A stretch of DNA of 64,000 bases. Origin: Escherichia phage vB_EcoM_LNA6. Below, piece by piece: positions 31,019 through 52,870 of this stretch; position 1 is the stretch's first letter, and each line of letters opens with the position of its first letter. The notes under the pieces are model-generated. The model did no database searches and was not told where the DNA came from. It worked only from the letters and a program-made list of their open reading frames with translations. The translations under genes were made by a program, and so were the position numbers. The DNA lies in sequence record OM630585.1. The stretch is one strand, 5' to 3'.

Positions 31019-31575
31019 TCAGTGTACCTCAAGCCAATTCTTACCAACTTTACCAGTACCAGTTACAAGCGTTTCCTCCTTAAGTCCTAAGTTTCTTGAT
31101 GCCTGACCATACATCCAGTCAATCACTGCTTTAACATCTTGTGTCATCTCTTCTGGGCACTCCCAACTATTTTCATCGTGGTATGCTAGAAGCAATCTAG
31201 CACCAATAGCTGGTTTTCGACCATTCAGCTTTGTAAGACCCTCTTCACAAGTTCTTCTACAAGCGAGGTTGATGGCTTCATTCTGAACCTGACTTTCCGA
31301 ACCCATGAGCAGATAATTCAATAGTTTGTGTGGAGATTTACACCACAACCATGCACCAGCAACCTTTACAAAACCACCTTTAGAAATTGCAGCAGTCTTA
31401 CCAAATACCTCTTCAAGAGCCTTCTTAGTGGCTTTGAAGTCAGCTTCCAAATTATCTATCAACTTTTTAATCTTAGGGAGGCGTACAAAGTAAGTTTGCT
31501 TAGTTAAAGCACCTTCTTCGGTTGTTGATGCTTTAATCGTCTTGGCAAACTTCTCATCACCTGCCCCAAACAATA
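31019..31575 (-). CDS. DNA polymerase (family A, T7 gp5-like), exon 2
   Basis: Begins in motif B (..LFGAGDEKF, cf. T7 YGFLYGAGDEK) and ends with motif C region HDENSWECPEE and C-terminal GKNWLEVH; exon boundary inferred. Confidence 0.75.
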
Positions 31576-32376
31576 CATCTGGTCAATACACTCGCAAGGT
31601 GTACCAGTTCTCTTATGAACTTCTCCGCATTTCTACGGAGTGTCGGACTATATCACGTAGTAGTAATACTACCGTTGCACTTGGGAATGGTCATTAGCTT
31701 ACCACCCTACTCTACTCAGTTCATACATTAAGTATGCTTTTCGATAGTCTCTGAACGTTTCTCTGTTAGGAACTCTAAAATACTATTGTTTACTAAGGTA
31801 TGCAATTGCTCTCTGCATATTATCAACGCTATCTGCAAGCAACCCCAAAGCCCTATTGCAATTGTGGCACAACATACCTCTTACTTTTCCGGTTTTGTGG
31901 TCATGGTCAACGACAAGTTTAGCCTTATGCCGTGAACTATTCATGATAAAACCTTCACCGCCACAAATTTGACATTTGTAATCACAGTTACGGAGTAAGG
32001 TTTCAACCTCTTCTCTTTCTAAACCATATGTTCTCAGGTAGTAATTCTTAACTCTACCTTTCTCTCCGCAATGCGAAGAACAATAAACTTGCCTTGCTGT
32101 TCTAGGCATGAACACCTTCTCACAGCTAGGACATTTCTTAGTAAGAACCCTATGTTCTGCTCTTCTGTCAAATTTTAATACGCAACTTCTGCACCGTTTT
32201 TGATTGTATTGGTATGGTTTAAACTCTGCACCACACTCAGTACACAATCTCTCTTTGTAACCTGCCATTGTCTCTCCCCTTTGCTTTAGGAGTCCTAACA
32301 GAGACTTCGCTGCTGATTACCATATCTTTACAGACTTAGGCTTCCAGCAATTCACAACGTTTTACATGCGCCACTG
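31576..32376 (-). mobile_element. group I intron interrupting the DNA polymerase gene in motif B (boundaries approximate)
   Basis: Minus strand shows GTTCAGAGACTATCG (R/P7 5' strand) and GATATAGTCCGAC (S/P7 3' strand) downstream of the HNH ORF, plus a CTCCG-TAGAAAT-CGGAG hairpin; polymerase reading frame interrupted by stops on both sides. Confidence 0.7.
31783..32268 (-). CDS. HNH homing endonuclease (endonuclease VII-like), intron-encoded
   Basis: 161 aa; multiple CxxC pairs and LVVDHDHKTGKVRGMLCHNCNRALG, a His-Me finger/EndoVII-type HNH motif; lies wholly inside the polymerase intron. Confidence 0.75.
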   Translation of the reverse strand: MAGYKERLCTECGAEFKPYQYNQKRCRSCVLKFDRRAEHRVLTKKCPSCEKVFMPRTARQVYCSSHCGEKGRVKNYYLRTYGLEREEVETLLRNCDYKCQICGGEGFIMNSSRHKAKLVVDHDHKTGKVRGMLCHNCNRALGLLADSVDNMQRAIAYLSKQ

Positions 32377-34519
32377 ACGCATAAATGCCATTCTTGGCTT
32401 TCTTACGACCCTTACTAATTTCTTGAAGAAGGTTTGTATCCTGAGTAGCTCGACAAGTCAAGATATCTTCCTCTTTATTAAGGCTGAAGTAGATGCTATT
32501 TAAAGTATGCGCATCAGTTCCTGAGTACACCACGTACAAGTCATTTTCAGAATCATAATGCAAATACTTGTCAATCTCTGGGTTTAGATACTGGTCAAAA
32601 TGTTTGCAATAGTATCTGCCATCCTCTTGTTTGACAAACTCAACTTCTTCTTTACCCTCTGTCACTGCTTTGGTGAACTCTTTATCACCCATAAAGTTAC
32701 ACAGCAGTACAAGTTGCGCGCTATTCATATCTGCTGAAACAATATTAGTTCCTTCTTCACAAGTCCACACCTCCCTCATAGGTGCTCCATAGACAGCAGC
32801 ACCAGACGGTACGTTTACAATACCATATTGTGTCATACGTCCAGTTGAAGTGCCAAACACCATTGCACCAGCACTAAGGCGACCATCAGGACGAATCTGG
32901 TTCAACCAACCTTTTTCATCATCCTTTGAGTTCTCAATAGTTCTGCGTCGGTGCATCAAAGTATAGTACTTAGCAATCTTCTGTCCAAGCTCACCTTCAA
33001 TCGTATCATAAGATGATTCAGTAAGTTTTGGTGAAGTACGGATTAAGCAAGGTTCAAGCAAATCTGTGTATTTCTTCACAGACCAGTTATGCTCAATATA
33101 CTGTACACCTTCGTGCTCAACATAGCTCAAACCACACCGCTCAACCATTTCCTGCCACTTAGGATGTTTTGTAATCATCTTTTTATTGTCTTTGAAACGA
33201 CAAACTTTGACAGGGCGACCATCTGAGTCTTTCTTGTAGTTCCAGTCATCTGGAATCCAACCAACTGATTTCAAGTAGTCTTTAACAACTGCTACCTGAG
33301 TCATACGAGAAACTTCAAACTCAATTGGTGTATACGGTGCATCAATCAAACCTGTGTAGCGACTTGACTCAAGTTCAAAGTGGTTAACAACGTGACTGTT
33401 ATAGTACTTCACAGTTTTGACTGTTTTTACTGGCTTCCAGTCTTTGCATTTCTTACCAATCTTTGCATTCAACTCATTGCAAATTTCACGAGCATCCTTC
33501 ATTGCTACAAAACCCTCCTTGTACTCTTCACCAGTTACAGAGTTGGTTGGTGTATAGCAATTTCTCTTTTCAATGTTAAAAATCTTTGTAGTTGGCTTAC
33601 CAAATGGCTTGATTTCATATGTCTGCATCTCACCATTACGTACCTGCTGACGATACTTTGTCTTAGGGTACTTGGTAATCCTCTTCAGTCCATCTGCATG
33701 ACCAAATGTTTCAACATACTCATTCCAAGCCCTTGCAAACTCTTCTCCAGTGACTTTACCTTTGGTCTTAATAGTTGGAGGAAGATGTGGTTCAACCTCT
33801 GAAGCAAGCTCATTAGTCAACTTGTCAAGTTCCTTTACATGGAACTCCATAAGCTCTTTATCAGCTTTCCAACCATTGATAGCTTGCTGGCTCATCCAGA
33901 AAGATGTCTCTTTAGCTCGCATGTAGGTTTCATAAGTGTCTATGCCACACTTCTTAAGCTTGAGATACTCGTTATCAAGTGCCCGTTTAGTTTTGGTGTT
34001 AATACGGATATCTTCTACAACACGAGTGAAGATTTCTGCATTCCACACACCCCAATGTTCAATCTCTGGTTTACGAACACCGACACGAGCACCCCATGCA
34101 GCCAAACCATGAGCACCTTTATAACCCCTTGGAGTTGGTCTATCCATCCACTGAACACGAGACTGAATAAGAGAATCCTGAAAGAAATTACTCCACGGCT
34201 TACACTTTGGATTATCAAAGTTCCATAAATCAGGTGCAATGTGATTGAAAACCCACCAGTCATAACCGAGACCGTTATGGATGCAAAGACGTTTTGCCTT
34301 TAACGCAAACTCAACACCTTCACGTAAACCACCCTTAATGTACTTGGTATACTTGTGACCGAGGATAGGCTCATCTGTGAAGACCCATACAGGTGGCTCT
34401 TCATCGTCAGATTTATAGTCTGCAAAAGCCATTACGTGAACTTTAGTGAACTCAAGGAGTAAACCATCAGTCTCTGTATCACCAACCAAATGTAAGTTTT
34501 TAAAATCTATGTTTTCCAT
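32377..34519 (-). CDS. DNA polymerase (family A, T7 gp5-like), exon 1 with 3'-5' exonuclease domain
   Basis: N-terminal VGDTETDGL (Exo I DxE); regions YTPIEFEV, GRLSAGAMVFGTSTGR and ADMNSAQLVLLCNFMG align from memory with T7 DNA polymerase; ends in motif B RKKAKNGIY. Confidence 0.8.
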
Positions 34520-46382: not shown

Positions 46383-46640
46383 ATGAAAGATTTAATAGAA
46401 AAACATGAGCGACCAATATACTTGCTCTACAAACCCCGCAAAGCATTGTACTATGTGAGCAGCACAGGTATCATGATAAAGCAGAATAATGACTTATGGG
46501 TCACTGGAGCTTCTTACATCTCTACAGCAGATGGTAAAATCTATGCAAGACCTTATGAGATGTTTAACAAAGAAAATTGGGAAGTTTTAGACAGAAAACA
46601 AGCCTTAGAAATGATAAAGAAAGGAGAAATCACGCTATGA
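46383..46640 (+). CDS. hypothetical protein between nrdA and nrdB
   Basis: 85 aa from ATG 46383 with GGAGAGA RBS. Confidence 0.4.
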   Translation: MKDLIEKHERPIYLLYKPRKALYYVSSTGIMIKQNNDLWVTGASYISTADGKIYARPYEMFNKENWEVLDRKQALEMIKKGEITL

Positions 46641-47710
46641 TTAACCAGCACCCAATCTTTTTAGGTGGTGAGAGAAAAACTTTTGACTCACTTAATAAGC
46701 ACTACCCAAAAATCTTTGAGCTTTATAAACAACAAAAAGCACAAGATTGGTCAGAAGATGAGTTCCCTTTTGAACAATCACGTCTTGATTTTGAGAGTGT
46801 CCCAGCATCAATGTCAGGTGTAATGCTTGAGATTCTTAAGTGGCAATGGGAAGCAGACACTCAAGTTGCTAAGAGCTTGGCATTTGCCTTTGCACCCTTT
46901 ATCTCTGATGACATCTATGCAACTGCAATTATGAAGCAGTCTGAGATTGAAAACCTACATGCTCTTACTTACTCAGAGATTGTAAGACAATGTATTAAAA
47001 ACCCTGAAACAATCTTAGATGAGATTAACCAGAATGTTGCTGTGCAAGACCGATTAAAAACTGTGAATCGTGTTCTTGAAGAATTACTGGATGAAGGTAT
47101 AAACTATCGTCTGAGTTATGTTCGTGATTCACTTCTGGACAAAGACCCTTTACACTTCCATAAAGTGATTCTGAAAGGGCTGTTTGCAGTGACTGCACTT
47201 GAAGGTATATCTTTTATGGCATCATTTGCATGTACTTTTGCACTTGATGCTCAAGATAAATTTCAGGGTATTGCTCAAGCGGTACAGAAAATTATGCTTG
47301 ACGAAATCCTTCACACTAAAATTGATATTGAAGTTTTAAAAGAAACTTTAAGAGATGATGAGTGGCAGAAAGCTTTTCAACAAATTCTTCCAGAGATTAA
47401 AGTAATCTTAGATGAAGTAGTTGAAAGTGAAGAGAAATGGTCGTATTATATCTTCTCCGAAGGACGTGCTGTAGTTGGCCTAAATACAAAGCTTCTTCAT
47501 GAGTGGGTTTACTATAATGCTGCCCCATTGTATGATATGTTTGGCATTCCCAGAGATTTTGTAGCTCCTAAAGAACCACCTTTGAAGTACATGATTAAGA
47601 AGATGGAAATTGATAAAGAGCAGAATGCTAATCAGGAGCAACAGAACGGTGCGTACCTATTGAATACTGTTGTAGATGATTTGAATAGTGGATTTTTAGA
47701 GGTTCCTTAA
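46637..47710 (+). CDS. nrdB: ribonucleoside-diphosphate reductase small subunit (class Ia)
   Basis: 357 aa from ATG 46637 (AAGGAG RBS at 46621); typical NrdB size and position after nrdA. Confidence 0.65.
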   Translation: MINQHPIFLGGERKTFDSLNKHYPKIFELYKQQKAQDWSEDEFPFEQSRLDFESVPASMSGVMLEILKWQWEADTQVAKSLAFAFAPFISDDIYATAIMKQSEIENLHALTYSEIVRQCIKNPETILDEINQNVAVQDRLKTVNRVLEELLDEGINYRLSYVRDSLLDKDPLHFHKVILKGLFAVTALEGISFMASFACTFALDAQDKFQGIAQAVQKIMLDEILHTKIDIEVLKETLRDDEWQKAFQQILPEIKVILDEVVESEEKWSYYIFSEGRAVVGLNTKLLHEWVYYNAAPLYDMFGIPRDFVAPKEPPLKYMIKKMEIDKEQNANQEQQNGAYLLNTVVDDLNSGFLEVP

Positions 47711-47952
47711 TGACTTATGTAATTTACTCCAAAACTGGATGCCCTCAGTGTGAGACTGCAAAGAATTTTGCAAAAGCTCGTGGTATTGACCATGTTGTGA
47801 GAATGTTAGGGCAGGACTATGAGCTATCAGACCTGATGGATATTGCACAGATGCCAGTTCGTCAGATGCCATTCATCATGAAAACTGATGGACAAAACCT
47901 AAAACCTGTTGGTACGCTACAGAATTTTATGGCAGAGGTGAATAATGCTTAA
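47710..47952 (+). CDS. glutaredoxin/NrdH-like redoxin
   Basis: 80 aa; YSKTGCPQCETAK with CPxC active site; adjacent to nrdAB. Confidence 0.65.
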   Translation: MTYVIYSKTGCPQCETAKNFAKARGIDHVVRMLGQDYELSDLMDIAQMPVRQMPFIMKTDGQNLKPVGTLQNFMAEVNNA

Positions 47953-48151: not shown

Positions 48152-48158
48152 AATGAAA

Positions 48159-48181
48159 GGGTCTCTTCGGAGACCTTTTTA
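48159..48181 (+). terminator. rho-independent terminator
   Basis: GGTCTC-TTCG-GAGACC hairpin followed by TTTTT. Confidence 0.6.
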
Positions 48182-48199: not shown

Positions 48200-49396
48200 A
48201 TGAACAAAGTACAGATTATTAAAAAGAACGGCTCACTTGAAGAACCTGATATCAAAAAAGTTTTAGCAGCAGTCACAAAGTCAGCTAACAGAGTTGGTTA
48301 TAAAGAGCTTCCACCAGATGTTACTCAAGCTCTTGAGTCAGCATTTATGAGGATTCTGGTAAAATCTACTAAGCAGAATAATTTACTCGTTTCAGTAAAT
48401 GATATTCACAGTATTGTTGAGGGTGCTTTGGCAGAAGTCAATCACGAGATTTATGAGTCTTACTCAACATATAGAAATTACCGTAAAGAGGTTGCTCAAA
48501 ATTGGGATGAACTTTACCAGAAGACCAAAGATACACTCTTCTTAGGTGACCGAGAAAACGCTAATTTTGACAGCAGTTTAATTTCTACAAAAGGTTCAAT
48601 TATTCGTGGTTACCTGACTAAAGAAATCTTTAAACAGTACCACTTAACACCAGAGGAACTTGAAGCCATTGAAAAAGGGTTTATTTATATCCATGACTTA
48701 AGAGACCTAATTTTTGGTGGTATCAACTGTTGTCTGTTTGACATTGGTAAAGTGCTGAAAGGTGGCTTTGAAATGTCTGGCATTGAATATTGTGAACCGA
48801 AGTCTGTACTGTCAGCATTACAGGTTATTGGCGATGTAGTTCTTTCAGCAACTGCACAGCAATTTGGTGGCTTTACTTTAGCAGAGATTGATAAGGTACT
48901 TGTACCGTATGCTAAAAAATCTTTAGTGTACCACTCAGAGAAAGCTGAAGAGTACGGAATCCCTAAAGAGCAACACTATAATTACGTAATGGAGCAATTA
49001 CAGAATGAGTTAACACAAGGTTTCCAATCTCTTGAAATGAAACTTAACACTGTTCCTTGCAGTCGCGGTGATTTTGCATTTACTACTCTGACATTTGGTC
49101 TGTTGGAACCAGATATGCACAATGAAGATAACCGTCTTCAGTTTATGATTGCCAATACAATCCTTAACGTAAGGATGAACGGGCAAGGAAAAAGCAAAAA
49201 ACCTGTTGTGTTCCCTAAACTTGTGTATATCTATGAAGAAACGAGACATAAGCTTGATGTATGCCAAGTAAGGTTGTTTGAAAAAGCTATTGAGTGTTGC
49301 TCTAAAGCTATGTATCCAGATTTCTTAAGTGTATCTGGTCATGGTGCTGTAGCAGAGGCTTTTGAGCGTTCTGGTAAGGTAATTTCCCCGATGGGT
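48200..49396 (+). CDS. nrdD: anaerobic ribonucleoside-triphosphate reductase, exon 1
   Basis: YIHDLRD..GGINCCLFD...EPKSVLSALQVIGDVVLSATAQQFGGFTLAEIDKVL aligns from memory with T4 NrdD; exon ends ..ISPMG with final U at 49396 followed in-frame by TAA. Confidence 0.8.
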
Positions 49397-50138
49397 TAAC
49401 AAGCTCTATAGCTCATCTAAAACGTGCCTAAACAGGGAAACTCTACAGATGTAGACAATCCTGTGCTAAATGATGTACGATGTAAGAAACTATACAACAT
49501 AGGAGTCTTACATGCCAAACTATCACGTCACTGAAGATGGAAAAGTCTTTAGGGAAAATGGTGTAGAGCTTACGCAGTGGAAATCCAACACTGGGTATAT
49601 GAAAGTGAGGTTTTACGGTAAGAAGAATCGTGACATGTATGTCCACAGGTTAGTTGCTGAGAAATATGTACCTAACCCGAACAATCTTCCAATTGTAAAA
49701 CATAAGGACGATAACAAACTAAATAACCACGTATCTAACTTAGAATGGGGTACTCATTCTGAGAATGCTAAAGAAGGTTATGAGAATGGATGCTACAAGT
49801 TCCACAAGCGTTCATATGCCGTGAAAGCCACACACAAAGTGACAAAGGAAGTTATTGTTACTAAGTCAATACGAGAGTTATCCAATATACTTGGATACAA
49901 TCGCAAGACCATCTCTTCAATATTGAAGGGTGTAAAAGAGCATAATAACTTCGAATATGAGTTTGAATACATCTAAATGCCGAACGACTAACCGTGATGA
50001 ATGTAGCGGTGTAGGGTCAAGCGACTCGAAATGGTACGCTACTTAGAAATAAGTAGAAGATATAGTCTGGACTTACTGGCGACAGTAAGCAGCTTGAATA
50101 AAGCGGGGTAAGCTTAGCGAACTTACCTGAACAATAAG
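49397..50138 (+). mobile_element. group I intron in nrdD
   Basis: Interrupts NrdD between ..VISPMG and CRAFLS.. (cf. T4 ..VSPMGCRSFLS); intron ends with G 50138; core GACTCGAAA (P7 5'), CTACTTA-GAAA-TAAGTAG (P8, 7 bp stem, GAAA loop), AGATATAGTC (P7 3') at about 50018-50065. Confidence 0.75.
49512..49976 (+). CDS. HNH homing endonuclease with NUMOD-like HTH, intron-encoded
   Basis: 154 aa; VHRLVAEKY...HKDDNKLNNHVSNLEWGTHSEN HNH motif; C-terminal SIRELSNILGYNRKTISSILKG HTH-like; inside nrdD intron. Confidence 0.7.
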   Translation: MPNYHVTEDGKVFRENGVELTQWKSNTGYMKVRFYGKKNRDMYVHRLVAEKYVPNPNNLPIVKHKDDNKLNNHVSNLEWGTHSENAKEGYENGCYKFHKRSYAVKATHKVTKEVIVTKSIRELSNILGYNRKTISSILKGVKEHNNFEYEFEYI

Positions 50139-51086
50139 TGTAGAGCATTTTTATCACCATACCATAACGAATATGGTGAAGAGTTTTATGTAGGTCGTGC
50201 TAACATTGGTGCTGTATCTTTGAACTTACCAATGATTTACCAGTATTCTAAAGAGAAGGGCTTAGATTTCTGGAAAGAGCTTGATAAGTACCTAGAGATG
50301 ATTCGCAGCTTCCACAAGAAACGCTACGAAATGATTGCTAATATGCCAGCAAGTTCTAACCCTCTTGCATTCACACAAGGTGGTCTGTACAAAGGGACTA
50401 AGAAACCTACTGACAAGGTTGGTTGGGATATCGTGAAGTCCTTCACAGCTTCTTTTGGGGTTACTGCTCTTGATGAACTGTCTGTTCTTGCTGAAGGTAA
50501 ACGACTTCATGAAGTTGGAAGATATAGTTTTGCATACGATGTTCTGGAATACATCAACATGAAAACTGAAGAGTTTAAGAACGAAGATGGCTTCTTGTAT
50601 GCGGTATATGGCACTCCAGCAGAATCACTTTGTGGAACTCAGTTAAAACAGTTCAGAGATATGTTTGGCGTTATTAAAGGTGTCTCTGACAAGGAATACT
50701 TTACAAACAGTTTCCATATGAATGTTGCAGCAGACATCTCACCATTTGAGAAGCAGGACTTAGAAGAGCCATTCTTCCATATCTGTAGAGGTGGCAGAAT
50801 CCAGTATGTAAGGGTAGCTAACCCAGAAAACTTAACAGCACTTAAAAGTTGTATTACCAGAGGGATGTTGAAGGGTTTTTATCAGGGACTTAACTTTAAC
50901 TTAGCAATCTGTGAACATTGTGGTAACAGACCAAAGGCTGATGTTGAAGAATGTGAGGTTTGTCATTCACACGATATCTCTGTGATTAACAGGGTGTGCG
51001 GATATTTGGGATGGACTAAGATTAAAGGTGAATCCCGAATGAATGATGCAAAAATCGCTGAGATTCGTGACAGAATTTCTATGTAA
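50139..51086 (+). CDS. nrdD: anaerobic ribonucleoside-triphosphate reductase, exon 2
   Basis: Open frame from 50139 (CRAFLSPYHNEYGEEF..); YFTNSFHMNV and C-terminal glycyl-radical region RVCGYLGW align from memory with T4 NrdD. Confidence 0.8.
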   Translation, partial: CRAFLSPYHNEYGEEFYVGRANIGAVSLNLPMIYQYSKEKGLDFWKELDKYLEMIRSFHKKRYEMIANMPASSNPLAFTQGGLYKGTKKPTDKVGWDIVKSFTASFGVTALDELSVLAEGKRLHEVGRYSFAYDVLEYINMKTEEFKNEDGFLYAVYGTPAESLCGTQLKQFRDMFGVIKGVSDKEYFTNSFHMNVAADISPFEKQDLEEPFFHICRGGRIQYVRVANPENLTALKSCITRGMLKGFYQGLNFNLAICEHCGNRPKADVEECEVCHSHDISVINRVCGYLGWTKIKGESRMNDAKIAEIRDRISM

Positions 51087-51097
51087 AACTTGACAAG

Positions 51098-51484
51098 GTG
51101 ATGTGGGTCTTGATAGGCTTACATCACCTTTTTATTTGGAGTTACATTATGGACTTGTGGCTTTATGTAGCAGCTTGTGGGATTGTATGTCTGATAATCT
51201 TATTTATTCTTGGAATAATGCGATTTAGAGACATAATACAGTCAGATTTTTTGCCTGAGTTTGCCATGATAGTTGGGGTTATTGCCCTTTGTGTCTTGGC
51301 AGTGTTCTATTCATACAAAACTGTGATATGGATGGAGGCAAACAATTGTGTAAAAACTCATCAGCATCGTGAGGTTACTCATTTTGTGAGTGTACTTAGT
51401 GGTAGCACCACTATACTTGTCCCACAAACTTCTGTAGAGTATCTTTACACATGTGATAATGGTAAAACTATATGGTGGAATTAA
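51098..51484 (+). CDS. membrane protein (hypothetical)
   Basis: 128 aa with several hydrophobic helices. Confidence 0.4.
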   Translation: MMWVLIGLHHLFIWSYIMDLWLYVAACGIVCLIILFILGIMRFRDIIQSDFLPEFAMIVGVIALCVLAVFYSYKTVIWMEANNCVKTHQHREVTHFVSVLSGSTTILVPQTSVEYLYTCDNGKTIWWN

Positions 51485-52384: not shown

Positions 52385-52870
52385 ATGAATTACATGGAGA
52401 TTAGACCATTTGACACAGCTAATGGTGAAGGGGTTCGTGTAAGCCTCTTCGTAGCTGGCTGTAAACATCACTGTGAAGGCTGCTTTAACAGGGAGTCTTG
52501 GAAGTTTAATGCTGGTAAAGTATTTACTTATGCAAACCTCTACGGCATCATTAAGTTAATGGATGATGAGGCCATCAGTGGGTTGTCAATACTTGGTGGG
52601 GAGCCTCTGGATGATAGAAACATTCAAGAGGTCACCAACATATGCAAACGTATTAAAACTGTTTATCCAGAAAAGTCTATATGGCTTTGGACAGGTTTTC
52701 AACTGCACGAAAAAATCCACTTAGATGTGATGAAATATGTTGACGTGGTGATTGATGGTAAGTATGATTCATCTAAACCAACAGTTAAACCATATCGTGG
52801 TTCTGATAACCAAAACCTCTGGAGAAAAGAGTATGGATGGCAAGGTGATTGTCAATGGCGAGCAGAGTGA
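52385..52870 (+). CDS. nrdG: anaerobic ribonucleotide reductase activating protein (radical SAM)
   Basis: 161 aa; VAGCKHHCEGCFN is a CxxxCxxC radical-SAM cluster motif; size typical of NrdG; near nrdD. Confidence 0.7.
   Translation: MNYMEIRPFDTANGEGVRVSLFVAGCKHHCEGCFNRESWKFNAGKVFTYANLYGIIKLMDDEAISGLSILGGEPLDDRNIQEVTNICKRIKTVYPEKSIWLWTGFQLHEKIHLDVMKYVDVVIDGKYDSSKPTVKPYRGSDNQNLWRKEYGWQGDCQWRAE

Follow-up and report, generated by a model that had tools for sequence, protein, structure and literature searches.

A predicted td-like group I intron with an HNH endonuclease gene in nrdD of a Felixounavirus

The nrdD gene of Escherichia phage vB_EcoM_LNA6 (OM630585.1), a Felix O1-like phage (Felixounavirus), is interrupted by a 742-nt insert whose sequence identifies it as a group I intron. 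The insertion point directly precedes the codon for the catalytic cysteine of anaerobic ribonucleotide reductase. We analyzed one 64,000-nt stretch of this genome (the window) and consider it very probable, judging from the sequence, that the insert is mobile and self-splicing, a td-type intron that has the helices P7.1 and P7.2 and lacks P2. The original prediction had named it as a group I intron, and that claim is now supported by exact boundaries, a match to RF00028 in an ORF-less allele, covariation, and a presence/absence polymorphism accompanied by a co-conversion tract. An intron in the polymerase gene, which the prediction had also named, is visible as well. The features of the nrdD locus are collected in Table 1.

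Exon 1 ends in GTA ATT TCC CCG ATG GGT, with its final U at 49396, and the first intron codon after it is an in-frame TAA (49397-49399). The intron closes with ...AACAATAAG, its last base being the G at 50138, and exon 2 opens with TGT AGA GCA TTT (CRAFLSPY) at 50139, where the first codon specifies Cys400 (T4 Cys290). The U, the in-frame UAA and the terminal G are all where the original prediction had put them, and so is the break in NrdD, between VISPMG and CRAFLSPY. Removal of the insert yields a 714-aa NrdD that aligns without gaps to T4 NrdD (1h78) across the MG|CR junction; these residues are contiguous in T4 NrdD, as the original prediction had stated. Pfam NRDD matched exon 1 over profile positions 1-250 of 562 (E = 5.5e-42) and exon 2 over positions 264-560 (E = 2.7e-64), and exon 2 also encodes the glycyl-radical domain (Pfam Gly_radical). 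We judge the match of the NRDD profile and of T4 NrdD across the junction to be far beyond chance.

Comparison with intron-less alleles, a check suggested with the prediction, confirmed the exact ends of the insert. It is missing base for base from the alleles of warpig, garuso, Felix O1 and D4, and its ends agree to the base with the uninterrupted warpig sequence ...CCGATGGGT|TGCAGAG.... The warpig DNA fits equally well with boundaries moved one base to the right, in which case the intron would end in U. We set the boundaries at 49397-50138, the only choice that leaves U as the last base of the 5' exon and G as the last base of the intron. The related introns likewise all come after an exon whose last base is U. 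An intein was ruled out by the in-frame TAA directly after exon 1 and by an in-frame TAG at 50115, before exon 2.

Table 1. Observed and predicted features of the nrdD locus (positions in the window)
Feature	Position	Strand	Details and basis
nrdD exon 1	48200-49396	+	399 codons: ATP-cone and N-terminal half of NrdD; ORF list, Pfam, T4 NrdD alignment
P1 5' strand, AUGGGU	49391-49396	+	The final six bases of exon 1; 98% of cells paired in helix 1
Predicted group I intron	49397-50138	+	742 nt, td-like (IA2-type); starts UAA; RF00028, covariation, warpig comparison
Internal guide sequence	49404-49416	+	CUCUAUA 49404-49410 (P10); GCUCAU 49411-49416 (P1)
P3 5' strand, CGUGCC	49423-49428	+	With 50033-50038; 100% paired, both sides change in 5 of 6 pairs
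P4	49432-49437 with 49459-49464	+	Encloses P5; Rfam alignment; 100% paired
P5 hairpin	49442-49446 with 49451-49455	+	Inside P4; Rfam alignment; 100% paired
P6 5' strand, GC	49465-49466	+	Partner 49979-49980
P6a 5' strand, GAUGUA	49472-49477	+	Partner 49968-49973; 100% paired, both sides change in 6 of 6 pairs
Hairpin AUGUAAGA/UCUUACAU	49480-49513	+	Folding: -11.1 kcal/mol, z = -2.26
Putative I-HmuI-like HNH homing endonuclease gene	49512-49976	+	154 aa, P6a loop; Pfam, 1u3e, phrog_59
P7 5' strand, GACUA	49986-49990	+	With UAGUC 50063-50067; P3/P7 pseudoknot; Rfam consensus
P7.1	ACCG 49991-49994 with CGGU 50007-50010	+	Covariation helices 9-11, folding
P7.2	GGGUC 50014-50018 with GACUC 50023-50027	+	Covariation helices 9-11, folding
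P3 3' strand, GGUACG	50033-50038	+	Covariation helix 3
P8 hairpin, CUACUUA-GAAA-UAAGUAG	50039-50056	+	Folding; both sides change in 6 of 7 pairs
J8/7 and P7 3' strand, AAGAUAUAGUC	50057-50067	+	Invariant; agrees with Rfam consensus GAAGAUAUAGUCU
P9, CUUACUG-GCGA-CAGUAAG	50072-50089	+	Covariation helices 13-15, folding
P9.1	50092-50104	+	Covariation helices 13-15, folding
P9.2	50107-50127	+	Covariation helices 13-15, folding
Intron terminal G, 3' splice site	50138	+	G at the end in 11 of 11 related introns examined
nrdD exon 2	50139-51086	+	315 codons and stop; Pfam NRDD 264-560 and Gly_radical
Putative co-conversion tract	50139-50192	+	About 54 nt of exon 2; first 7 nt also in P10
Terminator-like hairpin	51095-51130	+	3' of nrdD; terminator scan

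The predicted P1 has 6 bp, among them the U.G pair between U49396 and G49411 that marks the 5' splice site. This pair is U.G in eight of the nine aligned sequences and U-A in the ninth (alignment columns 8 and 33), and in phiA047 the guide is altered along with its different exon. P10 comprises 7 bp between CUCUAUA and UGUAGAG (50139-50145). Felixounavirus shows it clearly, as does Vibrio phage F100, where a different guide forms 8 bp with that phage's own 3' exon (read by eye), and it is weak or otherwise placed in the JSE and navn types; over the nine-sequence alignment this helix (helix 2) is 71% paired. Since the MAFFT alignment misplaces parts of the td P1/P2 region, as well as some loops, td was left out of our conclusions on P1 and P10.

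P7 is invariant in all nine sequences, as is J8/7, which together with the 3' strand of P7 forms the most conserved segment of the group I core. The original prediction had recognized a P7-P8-P7 core downstream of the ORF. All three of its strings are present, and AGATATAGTC lies at 50058-50067, but GACTCGAAA (50023-50031) is not the 5' strand of P7. It was ruled out in that role as the 3' strand of P7.2 (pairing with GGGUC) plus the joiner to P3', and the true invariant partner of UAGUC is GACUA at 49986-49990. P7.1 and P7.2 are 97-100% paired with compensatory changes, were both recovered by folding, and are laid out as in td. These extra helices between P7 and P3' are the mark of IA2 introns in the Michel-Westhof classification. 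A P2 hairpin between P1 and P3 is absent, with just CUAAAA separating the 3' strand of P1 from P3. Because P7.1 and P7.2 are present but P2 is absent, we refer to the intron as td-like, IA2-type without P2, and not as strict IA2.

In gathering mode (cutoff 50 bits), RF00028 had no match anywhere in the window, and a permissive scan gave two split matches to the window copy, of 33.1 and 15.6 bits. The window copy falls below the cutoff because the 465-nt ORF in the P6a loop splits the model. The natural ORF-less allele of momo is 316 nt long, and its core is 99.3% identical to that of the window; it scored 54.4 bits. The Rfam covariance search proposed with the original prediction thus succeeds on the ORF-less allele and falls short on the window copy itself.

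In the nine aligned sequences, which come from several phage lineages, pairing reached 95.9% of cells versus 32-41% in slid controls, and both sides changed in 41 of 76 pairs versus 7-13 in the controls; the structure was built by hand from one of the aligned sequences and the alignment was trimmed, with the P6a loop removed, so the observed values are favored over the slid controls to some degree. None of 500 shuffles reached any of the observed pairing or covariation measures. Compensatory changes were abundant in P3, P6a, P8, P9 and P9.2. Among alleles whose ORFs differ by about 10%, the 277-nt core differed at 2 to 7 positions, and the changes that were placed on the structure fell in predicted loops.

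The last codons and stop of the ORF form the 3' strand of P6a. Its product resembles I-HmuI: Pfam HNH_3 matched residues 43-86 with 41.2 bits (cutoff 24.8; E = 1.3e-10), and residues 3-153 aligned with residues 12-170 of I-HmuI (1u3e; E = 5.6e-9). His64 and Asn85 correspond in this alignment to His75 and Asn96 of I-HmuI, and a Lys occupies the position of I-HmuI Asp74. The product also matched phrog_59 (E = 1.8e-43). In the C-terminal part, where enzymes of the two-domain I-HmuI type have a helix-turn-helix for DNA binding, residues 99-150 matched phrog_3855 (HTH; E = 5.8e-4). The prediction had labeled it HNH-NUMOD; the HNH part held, but the NUMOD part is weak, with NUMOD1 scoring 17.6 bits against a cutoff of 22.8. 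Orthologs at the same nrdD site in other phages are 40-53% identical to the product, which is 14-19 residues shorter in total than they are, chiefly at the N-terminus.

Relative to phage Tf, the ORF has 35 synonymous and 8 non-synonymous differences; third positions account for 38 of the 47 changes. Over the ORF comparisons made, there were 34-35 synonymous versus 8-11 non-synonymous codon differences, with 38 third-position changes in each. These counts indicate that the ORF is under purifying selection. The hairpin predicted at the start of the ORF encloses the Shine-Dalgarno sequence AGGAG (49501-49505), and its paired positions include the first two bases of the AUG; in this folding model, it might regulate the ORF by covering the ribosome-binding site. 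A promoter scan found fewer sigma-70-like sites than in shuffles and is therefore uninformative on ORF expression.

Three states of nrdD occur in Felixounavirus: no intron, an intron with the ORF, and an ORF-deleted intron. The intron is present in about 92-95 of about 241 Felixounavirus-like records and the ORF in roughly 60, the ORF having been lost in about one third of the intron-bearing records. Intron-bearing isolates include pinkbiff and Alf5. Within the first 54 nt of exon 2, five intron-plus and four intron-minus alleles show 11-13 differences, which follow the presence of the intron without exception. There are two exon 1 haplotypes, each found both with and without the intron, and one contig (L034) has a shorter hybrid tract of about 24 nt. 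The intron-linked tract is confined to exon 2, and it is in exon 2 that enzymes of the I-HmuI type nick (PMC3428280). A mobile (homing) intron is recognized by presence or absence at one site among close relatives together with co-conversion of flanking exon sequence, and the alleles show both here.

A splicing intron with a dead endonuclease could produce part of this picture if it were inherited vertically, or moved by general recombination or by an endonuclease acting in trans. The exon 2 tract would then reflect selection for P10 pairing or old linkage, with no ongoing homing. The N-terminally shorter ORF, the Lys at the I-HmuI Asp74 position and the absence of the ORF from about one third of intron-bearing records are consistent with this, as is the T at exon 2 position +3, which improves P10. 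However, of the 54 nt in the tract, P10 uses just the first 7, and the ORF retains the signature of purifying selection described above. In addition, intron-bearing alleles with two deeply divergent versions of exon 1 carry the same tract; this and the shorter hybrid tract are typical of repeated conversion events. We regard a dead endonuclease as unlikely.

Far less probable is an unspliced homing-endonuclease cassette, in which two NrdD polypeptides would be translated separately and then assemble, as is reported for Aeh1 NrdA. GenBank records do annotate two nrdD CDSs and an HNH gene, and non-splicing split ribonucleotide reductase genes exist (PMC3653736, PMC7344957). However, the insert has a complete group I fold with strong covariation, RF00028 passes on the ORF-less allele, and the 316-nt core is almost unchanged in ORF-less alleles, which a bare cassette would not need. 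The first start codon available to an unspliced second fragment is codon 427 or 431, without a Shine-Dalgarno sequence, and a fragment starting there loses Cys400 and 26-30 further residues. With the in-frame TAG at 50115 and no start before codon 427, Cys400 is untranslatable from unspliced RNA. The break would also fall at the tip of a buried finger loop: in T4 NrdD (288-MGCR-291), MG|CR forms the finger-loop tip that carries the radical cysteine (PMC4493059). Least credible of all is a decaying nrdD pseudogene holding a dead intron remnant, which nothing specific favors apart from nrdD perhaps being dispensable in aerobic laboratory growth, and against which stand a nearly invariant ribozyme core and two exons that are open, full length and, in intron-bearing alleles, under purifying selection (synonymous to non-synonymous, 66:26 and 26:7).

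If the insert is a mobile, self-splicing intron, nrdD would be transcribed as a single unit; the terminator scan found no + strand terminator between the nrdD exons. The intron RNA would fold, and the guide GCUCAU would pair with the exon end AUGGGU to form P1, with U.G as the pair that marks the splice site. P7 would bind a free guanosine, which would attack after U49396. The CUCUAUA guide would hold the 3' exon UGUAGAG in P10, the terminal G50138 would be used for exon ligation, and the ligated exons, ...AUGGGU|UGUAGA... (DNA ...CCGAUGGGU|UGUAGAGCA...), would provide the mRNA for the 714-aa NrdD. The gene in the P6a loop would supply the 154-aa I-HmuI-like HNH endonuclease, whose intron-less, warpig-type target would be TGCAGAGCCTTCTTATCTCC.... 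The recipient would then acquire, by recombinational repair (homing), a copy of the intron along with about 24-54 nt from exon 2. In this scheme, we infer catalysis, endonuclease activity and the cleavage position from sequence. If it is true, all three stages of the homing cycle have been caught within Felixounavirus, and during mixed infections the element may also work as a weapon that nicks nrdD in competitors lacking the intron.

We found no description of an nrdD intron in Felixounavirus in the searchable literature. No introns are reported in the genome paper on Felix O1, an isolate that indeed has none, and the comparative Felixounavirus paper and the Danish wastewater phage paper make no mention of introns. 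Dozens of Felixounavirus records give nrdD as two fragments and a stand-alone HNH gene. Because the second fragment is annotated from an internal start codon, the catalytic cysteine is missing from the deposited proteins; annotation as a joined CDS gives back one 714-aa NrdD. Several of the Felixounavirus phages misannotated in this way have been proposed for therapy or food safety. The element is an ordinary kind of phage intron, and the known mechanisms of group I introns and HNH homing stay unchanged. The locus is a compact natural system, with one intron/endonuclease pair at the radical-cysteine codon in several unrelated phage groups. Its empty, full and ORF-deleted states and its variable tracts make homing, intron loss and possible co-infection competition testable with existing isolates.

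The closest characterized relative of the ribozyme is the T4 td intron (RB3 copy), which self-splices and belongs to group IA2, with a core 64% identical and a BLAST identity of 71% over the 3' half. The two share the helix order P1, P3-P6a, P7, P7.1, P7.2, P3', P8, P7', P9, P9.1, P9.2, the placement of the endonuclease ORF in the P6a loop, GGGU at the end of the 5' exon, and G as the last intron base. td differs in its host gene (thymidylate synthase), in the presence of a P2 hairpin, and in its endonuclease, which is GIY-YIG (I-TevI) and not HNH. The T4 nrdD (sunY) intron likewise belongs to group I, carries a homing endonuclease and sits in the same host gene, again in a phage of enterobacteria. 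Its site is about 119 codons upstream (between residues 280 and 281 of the window NrdD, versus 399 and 400 here), and its endonuclease, I-TevII, is GIY-YIG (PMC2988022). The different insertion site and endonuclease family (GIY-YIG versus HNH) rule out identity of the two introns. The putative endonuclease is homologous to I-HmuI over its full length, whereas host gene, target sequence and phage group differ. In Aeromonas phage Aeh1, a ribonucleotide reductase gene (nrdA, with mobE) is also split by an HNH gene and annotated as two fragments. Aeh1 nrdA has no ribozyme and yields two polypeptides (PMC3653736); here, in contrast, the group I fold is complete and the second fragment is untranslatable with the catalytic Cys.

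Introns occupy the same MG|C site of nrdD in JSE (Krischvirus), navn and HMD-6 (Vequintavirus), ECGD1 (Justusliebigvirus) and Vibrio phage F100. We found no paper on these introns, and among these phages a joined nrdD CDS is annotated solely in the ECGD1 record. Their cores are 67-74% identical to that of the window, and their HNH endonucleases are orthologous; the intron is ORF-less in ECGD1 and in some IMG/VR relatives. The host NrdD proteins are 28-35% identical over exon 2, and down to 25-26% over exon 1 in Vequintavirus. These same-site introns have a different P1 loop and P10 guide, and the ORF extends into P7 (...EMPND). On balance, we favor the view that a td-like intron and its I-HmuI-like endonuclease were transferred together among at least five phage lineages, always landing at MG|C. 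The lineages meant are Felixounavirus, Krischvirus (JSE), Vequintavirus, Justusliebigvirus and a Vibrio phage group, with NrdD about 25-35% identical. A 2010 review of T4-related genomes found convincing evidence lacking for cross-group spread of T-even introns (PMC2993671). If it took place, this multi-lineage transfer would be cross-group spread of the kind for which that review saw no convincing case.

The window derives from a Felix O1-like myovirus (Felixounavirus). Its nrdD region has matches in 311 phage records and is 97.6% identical to that of Escherichia phage pinkbiff. The nrdD frame starts at 48200 and runs through ...CCG ATG GGT to 49396, with TAA directly after; it picks up at 50139 with TGT AGA GCA TTT (CRAFLSPY) and ends at 51086. 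The first part covers positions 1–250 of the Pfam NRDD profile plus an ATP-cone, and the second covers positions 264–560 plus the glycyl-radical domain. Joined, they encode 714 aa and align to T4 NrdD (1h78) with no gap at the junction (ISPMG/CRAFLS versus VSPMGCRSFLS). This agrees with the original prediction, which had the gene cut between MG and CR, residues contiguous in T4; the sequence strings it quoted were all found where it had placed them. Alignment with the intron-less allele of phage warpig fixes the insert at exactly 49397–50138 (...CCGATGGGT/TGCAGAG...). The DNA comparison is equally compatible with boundaries moved one base rightward; only with 49397–50138 does the 5′ exon end in U and the intron in G.

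We consider the insert very probably a splicing-competent group I intron, a prediction supported by the exact boundaries, a covariance-model match and covariation. At the gathering threshold, the Rfam group I intron family (RF00028) had no match in the window. With permissive filters, it scored 33.1 bits at 49909–50089 and 15.6 bits at 49432–49515, flanking the ORF and below the cutoff of 50. On a natural ORF-less allele, where the model is unsplit, the score was 54.4 bits, and the core of that allele is 99.3% identical to the window core.

The secondary structure was assembled by hand (see table). From the core originally proposed, the P8 hairpin and AGAUAUAGUC (J8/7 plus the 3′ strand of P7) were retained and one helix was relabelled. 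We rejected GACTCGAAA as P7; the segment pairs with GGGUC at 50014–50018 as the 3′ strand of P7.2 and also includes the joiner to P3′. The true 5′ strand of P7 lies 33 nt upstream of GACTCGAAA. A P7.1/P7.2 pair is typical of subgroup IA2 in the Michel–Westhof scheme.

Predicted secondary structure elements of the nrdD intron (window coordinates)
Element	5′ strand	3′ strand	Remark
P1	49391-49396 (exon AUGGGU)	49411-49416 (guide GCUCAU)	U.G at splice site
P10	49404-49410 (CUCUAUA)	50139-50145 (exon 2 UGUAGAG)	
P3	49423-49428	50033-50038	
P4	49432-49437	49459-49464	
P5	49442-49446	49451-49455	
P6	49465-49466	49979-49980	
P6a	49472-49477	49968-49973	
P7	49986-49990 (GACUA)	50063-50067 (UAGUC)	
P7.1	49991-49994	50007-50010	
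P7.2	50014-50018	50023-50027	
P8	50039-50045	50050-50056	
P9	50072-50078	50083-50089	
P9.1	50092-50095	50101-50104	
P9.2	50107-50112	50122-50127	
Terminal G of intron	50138		

We projected this structure onto nine aligned sequences with P6a loops trimmed (the window, momo, S920, JSE, Vibrio phage F100, ECGD1, navn, Aeromonas phage phiA047 and T4 td). Standard pairs filled 95.9% of cells versus 32–41% with the 3′ partners slid by 1–3 columns, a comparison that somewhat favours the observed values because the structure was derived from one of the aligned sequences and the loops were trimmed by the analyst. More robust is the tally of pairs changed on both sides, 41 of 76 versus 7–13 for the slid controls. 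Across 500 shuffles, none of the observed measures was reached. Compensatory changes were mostly in P3, P6a, P8, P9 and P9.2, and P7 was invariant. Folding the 3′ part of the intron alone gave back P7.1, P7.2, P8, P9, P9.1 and P9.2. The guide also tracks the exon: in phiA047, where the intron sits in another gene with exon end AUGGCU, the guide is GGUCAU. The P10 guide of F100, GAUUGGCA, read by eye, is complementary to its own exon start, UGCCGAUC.

Translation out of exon 1 ends at the intron's first codon. In the frame of exon 2, the upstream sequence has a TAG at 50115 and offers no start codon; inside the exon, the earliest in-frame starts, TTG (codon 427) and ATG (codon 431), both lack a Shine-Dalgarno sequence. 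The unspliced message therefore cannot encode Cys400, which aligns to T4 Cys290 (288-MGCR-291). Purifying selection persists on the exons of intron-bearing alleles: against phage Tf, synonymous to non-synonymous differences stand at 66:26 for exon 1 and 26:7 for exon 2. The only + strand terminator-like hairpins that a scan reported, at 51095–51130 and 51275–51288, both follow exon 2; none lies between the exons. Immediately before the nrdD start, at 48156–48181, a hairpin rich in G+C leads into a stretch of T (GGGTCTCTTCGGAGACC TTTTT). The scan assigned it to the minus strand, but its nearly palindromic sequence can also be read as a + strand terminator. If it terminates on the + strand, expression of nrdD would depend on a promoter of its own or on read-through.

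GenBank presents the locus as two nrdD fragments and an HNH gene, with a joined CDS annotated only in the ECGD1 record. The first fragment has a 399-aa protein entry of its own, and the second starts at an internal codon (ATG 50232 in the window; window 50220–51086; 1536–2142 in locus L011, for example). Because of this choice of start, deposited 'NrdD' proteins are about 30 residues short and lack the catalytic cysteine.

The intron ORF (49512–49976) encodes 154 aa. The original prediction of an HNH-NUMOD endonuclease held for the HNH part (Pfam HNH_3, 41.2 bits, cutoff 24.8), and NUMOD1, at 17.6 bits, fell under its cutoff of 22.8. The product also matches phrog_59, an HNH endonuclease family (E = 1.8e-43), and residues 3–153 align to I-HmuI (PDB 1u3e; E = 5.6e-9). 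His64 and Asn85 lie opposite His75 and Asn96 of I-HmuI, and Lys63 takes the place of Asp74. The last codons and stop of the ORF (UAC AUC UAA) form the 3′ strand of P6a. By folding, an 8-bp hairpin (49480–49487 with 49506–49513; z = −2.26) encloses the Shine-Dalgarno sequence, its stem including the A and U of the AUG; we infer a possible regulatory role. In Felixounavirus alleles differing by about 7%, most differences from the window fall within the ORF (47 of 49 for Tf, 49 of 56 for S920). Third codon positions account for 38 changes in each comparison, and synonymous to non-synonymous codon differences are 35:8 (Tf) and 34:11 (S920). Just 2 to 7 positions of the 277-nt ribozyme core change among these alleles, and those placed on the structure fall in predicted loops (e.g., P9 tetraloop GCGA to GUGA). 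The endonuclease is likely still active.

A synthetic spliced junction, used to search a phage collection, matched without interruption in many Felixounavirus genomes, including Felix O1, warpig, garuso and D4. Alleles of a third type, seen in momo, ph2-2 and others, hold a 316-nt version of the window's element that has lost 426 nt of the ORF, keeps its last ten codons and reads ATA in place of the ATG. By rough estimates from coverage bands rather than direct counts, the query matched about 241 Felixounavirus-like records, of which about 92–95 carry the intron, about 60 of them with the ORF. Felixounavirus-type contigs in IMG/VR held the 742-nt form eight times and the 316-nt form twice. Exon 1 occurs as two deeply divergent haplotypes, each found with and without the intron. 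Since the identical ORF deletion is present on both backgrounds (momo and ph2-2), a single deletion event, later moved between them, is suggested.

Among five intron-plus and four intron-minus alleles, 11–13 differences in the first 54 nt of exon 2 match intron presence exactly; no such linkage holds over the final 120 nt of exon 1. Relative to warpig, 10 of the 12 changed codons in the exon 2 tract are synonymous. An IMG/VR contig (L034, IMGVR_UViG_3300045988_024527) has a hybrid exon 2, with about 24 nt of intron type followed by the intron-less type (TCTTAACGATAATGGGGAAGAGTTCTA), so the end point of the tract varies between isolates. Co-conversion from a break inside exon 2 would leave such a tract, confined to one side and variable in length.

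Related introns occupy the exact MG/C site in JSE (Krischvirus), navn and HMD-6 (Vequintavirus), ECGD1 (Justusliebigvirus, ORF-less) and Vibrio phage F100. Compared with the window, their cores are 67–74% identical and their endonucleases 40–53%, versus 28–35% for the host NrdD proteins over exon 2 and 25–26% over exon 1 (Vequintavirus). The element is thus far more conserved than its host genes, which suggests that it spread horizontally to a single conserved target. Scanning IMG/VR with a P6-P7-P7.1 motif yielded 19 contigs, 14 with the intron in nrdD at the MG/C site and five with Aeromonas-phage introns in another gene (L019, L025, L027, L029 and L030). The related intron of these Aeromonas phages is ORF-less, ~262 nt long (about 1725–1986 in phiA047) and lies in an unannotated gene; in phiA047 the flanking CDSs are both labelled 'hypothetical protein'. 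The nrdD genes of navn (MN850642) and F100 have a second interruption upstream of the MG/C intron. In navn it is ~260 nt (about 681–943), lacks an ORF and lies near window residue 291, close to the T4 nrdD intron site; in F100 (225–1383) it carries a 309-aa HNH ORF.

Elsewhere in the window, a family-A DNA polymerase gene is split on the minus strand (32336–34519 and 31019–31573). Its insert (31574–32338, minus strand), presumably the 'polymerase intron' of the original prediction, holds an ORF (31783–32268) with an Endonuclease VII domain (Pfam E = 2.7e-19) and gave sub-threshold RF00028 scores of 28.1 bits at 32217–32353 and 15.4 bits at 31623–31952. Judged from translations only, the ORFs neighbouring nrdD at 46577–47952 and 52385–52870 resemble the rest of a nucleotide-reduction cluster: one of 377 aa, a glutaredoxin-like one of 80 aa with a CPQC motif and, downstream, an NrdG-like activase ORF of 161 aa with a CxxxCxxC motif.

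The nrdD intron, its site and its distribution appear undescribed in the open-access literature searched, and may have been described earlier elsewhere. The Felix O1 genome paper reports no introns in these genes (PMC3185647), which fits that phage's uninterrupted allele. Neither a comparative Felixounavirus study nor the publication on pinkbiff, momo and warpig mentions introns. For JSE, a 2010 review of T4-related genomes names only a putative gene 43 intron, and it sees no convincing evidence of T-even introns moving across phage clusters (PMC2993671). The main value of our analysis lies in correcting annotation and in offering a natural system for studies of homing and intron loss.

As a group I intron that bears a homing endonuclease and sits in a phage gene of nucleotide metabolism, the element is of a textbook kind. 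Among characterised ribozymes, the T4 td intron comes closest (core identity 64%; BLAST 71% over the 3′ half). The two share the same layout, with P7.1 and P7.2 between P7 and P3′ and the ORF within the P6a loop, as I-TevI is in td, but the nrdD intron lacks P2. T4's own nrdD intron, in contrast, sits at another site (window residues 280/281) and encodes the GIY-YIG enzyme I-TevII.
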